Assembly (NCBI RefSeq): GCF_030384885.1
Contig: NZ_CP128613.1
Origin: Escherichia coli
Lineage (GTDB): Bacteria > Pseudomonadota > Gammaproteobacteria > Enterobacterales > Enterobacteriaceae
Reading direction: 5' to 3' (one strand)
Length of the DNA: 64,000 bases
In this document: positions 8,782 through 8,839 of the stretch, one piece after another
Layout: each line of letters starts with the position of its first letter
Position numbering within the stretch: the first letter of the stretch is position 1
Translations under genes and position numbers: made by a program
Notes under the pieces: model-generated
Databases searched by the model: none
The model's input: only the letters and a program-made list of their open reading frames with translations
What the model was told of the DNA's origin: nothing

Positions 8782-8839
8782 GCCCGAGGTAATCTGAAAA
8801 AGGTGCAAAAGATTGCACCTTTTTCAGATTACCTCGGGC
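8782..8839. repeat. 27-bp perfect inverted repeat with 4-nt loop between convergent yjcF and yjcE
   Basis: 8782-8808 GCCCGAGGTAATCTGAAAAAGGTGCAA is the exact reverse complement of 8813-8839; loop AAGA. Confidence 0.9.

Follow-up and report, generated by a model that had tools for sequence, protein, structure and literature searches.

A terminator-like hairpin shared by the 3' ends of the convergent genes yjcF and yjcE of Escherichia coli, and its likely perfection by template switching

The template-switch model of quasipalindrome-associated mutation was reportedly put forward by Ripley in 1982, and bidirectional intrinsic terminators, in which a hairpin stands between an A-tract and a U-tract, are said to have been described between convergent genes by Ju et al. 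in 2019. In E. coli, the Lovett laboratory has followed quasipalindromes at a thyA hotspot and in the lacZ QP5 and QP6 reporters, and such repeats turn perfect or more perfect through an intramolecular template switch that takes the nascent strand as template (PMC7202029). In addition, a genome-wide model describes a preferential correction of imperfect inverted repeats in proteobacteria (PMC5941160), and template switching has been proposed to create and maintain hairpins (PMC8794818, identical with 10.1101/2021.04.15.439925; PMC13100816). Template switching is well established in reporters and has been statistically inferred from genomes, and natural loci that retain the parent allele together with every product are uncommon. 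The palindrome between yjcF and yjcE adds a new natural case of this known mutational mechanism, an unusually complete one that involves a terminator-like hairpin, and it does not represent a new class of element. The element itself is likely a 3'-end hairpin shared by the two genes, with a terminator-like core, that was perfected by template switching.

The window, i.e., the whole 64-kb stretch of E. coli DNA that was analysed, contains yjcF/espX5 (7400-8692, + strand), here a rare divergent allele encoding a pentapeptide-repeat protein, and yjcE (8860-10509, - strand), encoding a Na+/H+ antiporter. The open reading frames and the annotation of an identical genome agree that the two genes are convergent and that the palindrome lies between them, as the sequence-only reading had placed it. 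The perfect 27-bp stem with a 4-nt loop was confirmed by an inverted-repeat search and by direct reading of the sequence (27/27 complementary, 100%), and the resulting 58-bp palindrome (8782-8839) constitutes a 3'-end hairpin common to both genes. It comprises the yjcF-proximal left arm GCCCGAGGTAATCTGAAAAAGGTGCAA (8782-8808), which is the arm differing from the common E. coli allele, the loop AAGA (8809-8812), which is the same in all alleles examined, and the yjcE-proximal right arm TTGCACCTTTTTCAGATTACCTCGGGC (8813-8839), which equals that of the K-12 allele and would have been the template for the left arm. A spacer of 89 nt (8693-8781) separates the yjcF stop from the hairpin, and another of 20 nt (8840-8859), specific to the yjcF-occupied state of the locus, separates the hairpin from the yjcE stop codon. 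The length of the palindrome is indeed exceptional: no other hairpin-type inverted repeat in the 64 kb is as long, and the perfect one that comes next has arms of 13 nt. The arm sequence has no second copy in the window (0 expected by chance). The RNA folding calculation that had been proposed as a check returned a single uninterrupted 27-bp stem on both strands, with energies of -49.1 (+) and -50.0 (-) kcal/mol and z-scores of -14.8 (+) and -15.8 (-), and none of 200 shuffled sequences was as stable; folded as DNA, the perfect palindrome reaches -33.7 and -33.4 kcal/mol.

Within this long stem lies an inner core (8797-8824) of the form A5 / GGTGCAA-AAGA-TTGCACC / T5, which, by its sequence, its folding and the terminator-scan criteria, resembles a bidirectional intrinsic terminator. 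The tracts A5 (8797-8801) and T5 (8820-8824) are both inside the 27-bp stem, on either side of a 7-bp core stem (GGTGCAA/TTGCACC, four G-C pairs) with a 4-nt loop, followed by TTTTTCAG, and on both strands the inner hairpin is directly 5' of UUUUUCAG. The core thus has, on each strand, the make-up taken as terminator-like in the scan of the window, namely a short G+C-containing stem (about 5-14 bp for intrinsic terminators), a loop of 3-8 nt and a U tract immediately 3' of the stem. The earlier statement that the palindrome has no flanking U tract and is not a canonical terminator therefore holds for the full 27-bp stem and fails for the inner core, where, because A5 and T5 flank the 7-bp stem, a U tract stands directly 3' of the hairpin on both strands. 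The likely reason why the consensus terminator scan of the window left the site unflagged is that the stem continues beyond the T tract. The core alone is at the weak end of the range, with -8.7 (+) and -9.6 (-) kcal/mol. From the tracts, the stem runs outward for another 15 bp (GCCCGAGGTAATCTG / CAGATTACCTCGGGC), and pairing of this outer part would require a transcript that has not ended at the T tract.

Compared to the bidirectional intrinsic terminators, the yjcF-yjcE site shares the position between convergent genes and the succession of A5, 7-bp stem with four G-C pairs, 4-nt loop and T5, alike on both strands. However, its stem runs on for 15 bp outside the A and T tracts, its core is weak, and its U5 tract is not conserved, as U3 is found in its place on the yjcE strand in the K-12 allele and on both strands in the reciprocal perfect allele described below; only the window's allele has U5 after the core on both strands. 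A further difference is that K-12, which carries the imperfect allele, has no curated 3' end at the hairpin or in its region in the published Term-seq tables, where read counts are low, and that Rho termination regions lie just beyond the hairpin on both strands, at K-12 coordinates 4281854 on the + strand, which is antisense to yjcF and has a Rho score of 6.7, and 4281402 on the - strand, which is antisense to yjcE and has a Rho score of 5.4 (PMC7815308). The TERMITe Term-seq supplement likewise has no entry for yjcE or yjcF. Mapped 3' ends had been suggested as a check on whether the transcripts simply terminate elsewhere, and for the K-12 allele the Rho regions together with the lack of a curated 3' end at the hairpin bear this out in part. 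Judged by its anatomy only, the core probably either gives rise to some weak termination in both directions or protects the 3' ends of the yjcF and yjcE mRNAs. The outer 15-bp stem and the perfection of its pairing are without detectable selection.

The gap between actP and yjcE (window 7223-8859, from the actP stop to the yjcE stop) is a hotspot of replacement, for which E. coli has three alternative contents. The yjcF/espX5 state is found in about 4,105-4,115 of 5,426 complete E. coli genomes, and 264 genomes have an empty state, in which actP and yjcE directly adjoin (actP><yjcE) over 81 nt with a hairpin of their own. In UTI89, the gap is occupied by a LysR regulator and a CidA/LrgAB-like pair, along with an unrelated G+C-rich hairpin, and on the basis of this one genome the roughly 1,050 remaining genomes may be of the same state. 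The variable segment directly follows ...CGGGGAAT, starting 37 nt downstream of the actP stop, and extends as far as the yjcE stop. As each locus state carries its own hairpin just past the yjcE stop, a 3'-end role is argued for. The empty-site hairpin consists of a 14-bp stem, CGGTAAAAAGGTGC-N8-GCACCTTTTTACCG (-22.4 kcal/mol), and its core, A5-GGTGC...GCACC-T5, is homologous to that of the window. This stem (398-441 in locus L004; about 2419-2500 in L088 and L089) also runs on for 4 bp outside its A5/T5 tracts, and its yjcE-side flank, ACCGATTACACCGCC, resembles the outer right arm CAGATTACCTCGGGC of the window. The YjcF of the window shares 89% amino acid identity with the common cluster (207 versus 11,060 member sequences) and is present in 18 of the 5,426 complete genomes. 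Elsewhere, yjcF is often a pseudogene, as in FORC_028, where it has an internal stop, in XJ34 and MB06233, where it is frameshifted, and in Z226-5, where the gene is partial. In the spacer downstream of yjcF, the window contains a 14-bp segment (8739-8752, CTCACGGACTTCTG) that is also present, with one difference, in 06-00048, N3 and 19KM1831 and is absent from the K-12-type haplotypes.

A survey of the 5,426 complete E. coli genomes recovered the hairpin in about 4,115, and the imperfect K-12 allele is by far the commonest form (3,394 of the ~4,115 yjcF+ genomes, about 82%). In this allele, the right arm is that of the window and the left arm is GCCCGAGcTAAcCTGttAAAGGTGCAA, so that 23 of 27 pairs form and arm positions 8, 12, 16 and 17 are mismatched; all four differences between the window and K-12 arms are these mismatched pairs. 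In the window, the corresponding interval (8789-8798) has G at 8789, T at 8793 and AA at 8797-8798, each complementary to the right arm, where the common allele has C, C and TT. The K-12 allele folds less stably, with -33.2 (+) and -39.0 (-) kcal/mol as RNA and -19.7 and -24.3 kcal/mol as DNA. An exact search with the right arm retrieved 75 metagenome contigs, of which 71 had the K-12 allele and none had a perfect palindrome.

Four classes of corrected alleles were found besides this common form. The left arm is partly corrected in exactly 23 genomes (TT to AA at positions 16-17, with only 8 and 12 still mismatched) and fully corrected, giving the window's perfect palindrome, in 18, of which 17 have the rare yjcF haplotype of the window and the other, EC43, has a K-12-type haplotype. 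The 18th genome with the window's yjcF haplotype, R32_14_1F, has the perfect form with one extra mismatch. The right arm is partly corrected (TTTAACAG; TTGCACCTTTAACAG...) in 4 genomes and fully corrected in 9, which yields a second, different perfect palindrome (-51.3 and -52.2 kcal/mol). Both right-arm alleles had been written down from the mechanism before they were searched for, and exact matches to them were found. The two perfect palindromes differ at 8 positions, i.e., at 4 fully compensated pairs. In all four corrected classes, the new base is the complement of the opposite arm. About 99% of the yjcF+ genomes have 2-7 uncompensated mismatched pairs, and the single substitutions seen in the population (T9C, G22A, G24A and A11G, as well as T22C and A19C in the right arm) all create mismatches and affect both arms. 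The perfect form is a rare and probably derived state of the imperfect hairpin that is found in most E. coli.

The corrected alleles recur on different haplotypes. The 11 genomes sampled from the 23 with the left-partial allele fall into five local haplotypes, four of which are 6-25 sites apart in 821 bp and each have an uncorrected twin with no flank differences, while no other haplotype comes closer to the fifth (XJ34) than 11 mismatches. The right-partial allele occurs on two haplotypes, 16 flank sites apart, with an exact uncorrected twin for each, and one flank haplotype occurs uncorrected, left-corrected and right-corrected. These figures (five for the left partial, two for the right partial) count haplotypes and not strict events. 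In EC43, the perfect palindrome of the window stands on the most common of the K-12-type haplotypes, without a single flank difference in 821 bp, and the nearest markers that separate window-type from K-12-type haplotypes, at -20 and +97, are both K-12-type. The sampled genome with the reciprocal perfect palindrome, EC1515, had no exact uncorrected twin in the sample. Both the TT to AA change and the four-site change are multi-nucleotide, and they occur on haplotypes that are otherwise identical over 821 bp. In addition, no class in which only the loop-distal mismatches are corrected was found among the allele classes, the partial corrections always covering the loop-proximal mismatches, which is what one would expect of copying that sets out from the stem next to the loop, where 10 bp are perfectly paired, and proceeds outward to a varying extent. 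The haplotypes of 06-00048, N3 and 19KM1831 form a third group, which has the 14-bp segment like the window lineage and yet an imperfect left arm, indicating that the imperfect state is old and widespread.

These alleles are best accommodated by a mechanism that would start from the quasipalindrome of most E. coli, with its 23 of 27 pairs. During replication, the nascent strand would fold back within the hairpin and copy one arm from the other, and a single such switch would replace several bases together and make the repeat more perfect; in the window lineage, the left arm, as the exact complement of the right arm, would be the end product. We infer both that the allele of the window lineage arose by switching, rather than being ancestral, and that the switching takes place at the replication fork. 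Because of this arm copying, the perfect 27-bp stem would be mainly a mutational outcome and not a separately selected device. The + strand of the window is the reverse complement of the K-12 coordinates, with a net GC skew of -0.027, and the locus lies at a K-12 map position that we take to be clockwise of oriC; taken together, the skew and the map suggest that the fork reaches the right arm before the left arm. Under an intramolecular model, the later-copied arm would be rewritten, so that leading-strand synthesis would alter the left arm and lagging-strand synthesis the right one. The left arm is the recipient in 42 genomes (23 + 18 + 1, including R32_14_1F) and the right arm in 13 (4 + 9), a modest bias, and the left-arm excess appears to agree with the reported strand bias (PMC7202029).

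The locus thereby resembles the quasipalindrome reporters in that multi-base changes templated by the opposite arm make an imperfect inverted repeat more perfect, in that the same site is hit repeatedly, and in that either arm can be the recipient, as in the leading- and lagging-strand reporters. Unlike these, the yjcF-yjcE site is a natural chromosomal one that is known from population genomes alone. With the studies of inverted-repeat correction (PMC5941160; PMC8794818; PMC13100816), it shares the homogenisation of arms into perfect stems and the appearance of compensation without stepwise selection; however, those studies draw on between-species or genome-wide inference, whereas here a hub and its four predicted products are found at one locus in one species. 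Stem extension is a possible further likeness, given the 14-bp stem of the empty site and the 27-bp stem here, and from these sequences the comparison suggests that the longer stem may have grown from the shorter one by template-switch extension.

The polarity of the window's allele could also be the reverse, the perfect palindrome being ancestral in the rare window-type lineage and the K-12-type allele having decayed by 3-4 left-arm substitutions, in which case switching would explain only the other corrected alleles. No relatives of YjcF outside E. coli were found at E <= 1e-20 in a large protein database, nor did a protein search of a species-representative genome collection return any, and as there is no outgroup species with yjcF, an ancestral perfect palindrome with a decayed common allele is conceivable for the window lineage. 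A palindrome must at some time have been near perfect to exist, continuing decay is visible in both arms, and the empty-site hairpin has A5 and not TTAAA; moreover, the window lineage is deep-branching at this locus (3-6% from K-12, 11-14% at the 3' end of yjcF, 89% identity for YjcF), so that four differences in 27 nt are within the local divergence expectation. However, all four differences are in one arm, which is automatic under copying and has a chance of about 6-12% for 3-4 random hits, and EC43 indicates that an imperfect background can give rise to the same allele. The imperfect arm also occurs in two haplotype groups, one of which is nearer than any other to the window type in the immediate flanks, and the imperfect allele is the hub from which each of the four other classes differs by arm copying. 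On these grounds, we consider the reversed polarity unlikely and a derived perfect allele in the window lineage quite likely. E. coli recombines and the haplotypes around the locus are mosaic, so each corrected allele might instead have arisen once and been spread by very short gene-conversion tracts, with the EC43 hairpin coming from a window-type donor, and two AA-bearing haplotypes do differ only upstream of -212 and could be linked by a single crossover. Such a spread would nevertheless need tracts of less than about 117 bp for EC43 and less than about 200-250 bp for the other haplotype pairs, and an allele corrected at 16-17 only, if drawn from a window-type donor, would each time need a tract that ends, on the left, between positions 12 and 16. 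Since the right-arm-corrected alleles have no donor except themselves, their first origin would still need a templated multi-base change, and no recombinant with flanking donor markers was seen among the haplotypes, which makes recombination as the explanation very improbable.

Two further readings concern the function of the stem. RNase III needs roughly two helical turns of dsRNA, a length that the uninterrupted 27-bp stem exceeds, and selection for a long dsRNA stem, as an RNase III site or as a 3' stabiliser of the yjcF and yjcE mRNAs, would make the two perfect forms, with their 8 differing positions in 4 fully compensated pairs, a case of compensatory evolution. The stems are very stable (-49 to -52 kcal/mol), and on both strands the 27-bp stem has the length of dsRNA expected of an RNase III substrate (near-continuous over some 20 bp or more), though it can form only where a transcript reads through and includes both arms. 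Against such selection, about 99% of the yjcF+ genomes tolerate 2-7 uncompensated mismatched pairs, the single substitutions in the population make mismatches and restore no pairs, and the corrections change several bases of one arm in a block while the haplotype stays otherwise identical, a pattern that marks mutation and not stepwise compensation; we therefore hold this reading to be improbable. Long perfect palindromes are also typical of some protein-binding sites and of MITE ends, and replacement at this hotspot has given the locus three alternative contents, so that a protein-binding palindrome, a recombination site or a small mobile-element relic (MITE, REP or ERIC-like) might be considered. 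The yjcF-yjcE element is intergenic, palindromic and between convergent genes, as are REP/BIME, ERIC (IRU) and MITE-type palindromes of enterobacteria, but it is single-copy, belongs to no family and matches no curated RNA family. The genome-wide search for further copies found one site per genome in every E. coli genome carrying the element, the apparent two places per genome being the palindrome matched on both strands. A search of plasmids and phages returned no family, as the plasmid matches were megabase E. coli replicons and the phage matches were at chance level, and Rfam 15 at permissive thresholds yielded only generic microRNA-precursor hairpin models, all far below the gathering threshold. 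The suggestion of a mobile-element relic is refuted by these searches, and that of a protein-binding palindrome is unsupported, given that about 99% of genomes have mismatched arms. A SrsR gSELEX peak, the sole reported transcription-factor peak nearby, was also considered and rejected, as it is inside the yjcF open reading frame and has an unrelated motif. Protein binding, site-specific recombination or mobility as the reason for the palindrome is thus scarcely credible.

With template switching on a terminator-like hairpin as the preferred reading, the site could serve as a natural system in which the arm and strand preference and the tract length of template switching are studied in wild E. 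coli. It also calls for caution in structure-based annotation, as four compensated pairs would usually be read as strong covariation and are here the product of a mutation process, and an exceptionally long perfect hairpin in a genome scan need not mean a new functional element. A more speculative extension, which we regard as doubtful, is that template switching acts as a heritable and reversible toggle of terminator strength, the AA and TT states shifting the U tract between U5 and U3 on one or both strands. If so, the extent of read-through between yjcE and the convergent yjcF, which is a type III effector-like gene, would depend on the allele, RNase III could cleave the stem of the rare perfect forms, and the variants supplied by the hotspot would be selectable differences in expression rather than neutral noise.

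Several other features of the neighbourhood were observed. A hairpin, CCCCGGTCGCTTGATCGGGG, at 7234-7253, 12 nt past the actP stop, has no T tract and is common to the yjcF-occupied and UTI89-type states, and a K-12 Rho termination region (4283168, - strand, classified as 'orphan') is in its neighbourhood. A further locus arrangement suspected in two genomes was rejected, since one proved to be an ordinary yjcF+ genome and the other an IS1-associated deletion. In one locus (L086; NZ_LR134220.1, NCTC11121), an IS1A element adjoins the 3' end of yjcE and is followed by tRNA-Phe, dicD and dsbD, which indicates an IS1-associated deletion or rearrangement with loss of yjcF, actP and more. Between 3000 and 13500, the window diverges from K-12 by 3-6% across acs, actP, yjcE and ghxP, which is high for E. 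coli, and this divergence suggests either a deep-branching lineage or the import of the whole segment. Finally, on the - strand at 10614-10645, there is another terminator-like hairpin whose stem includes A and T tracts, formed by TGAAAACGGGTGGCAATGGCTGCCCGTTTTTA with 14 pairs and followed by TTTTCTCC.
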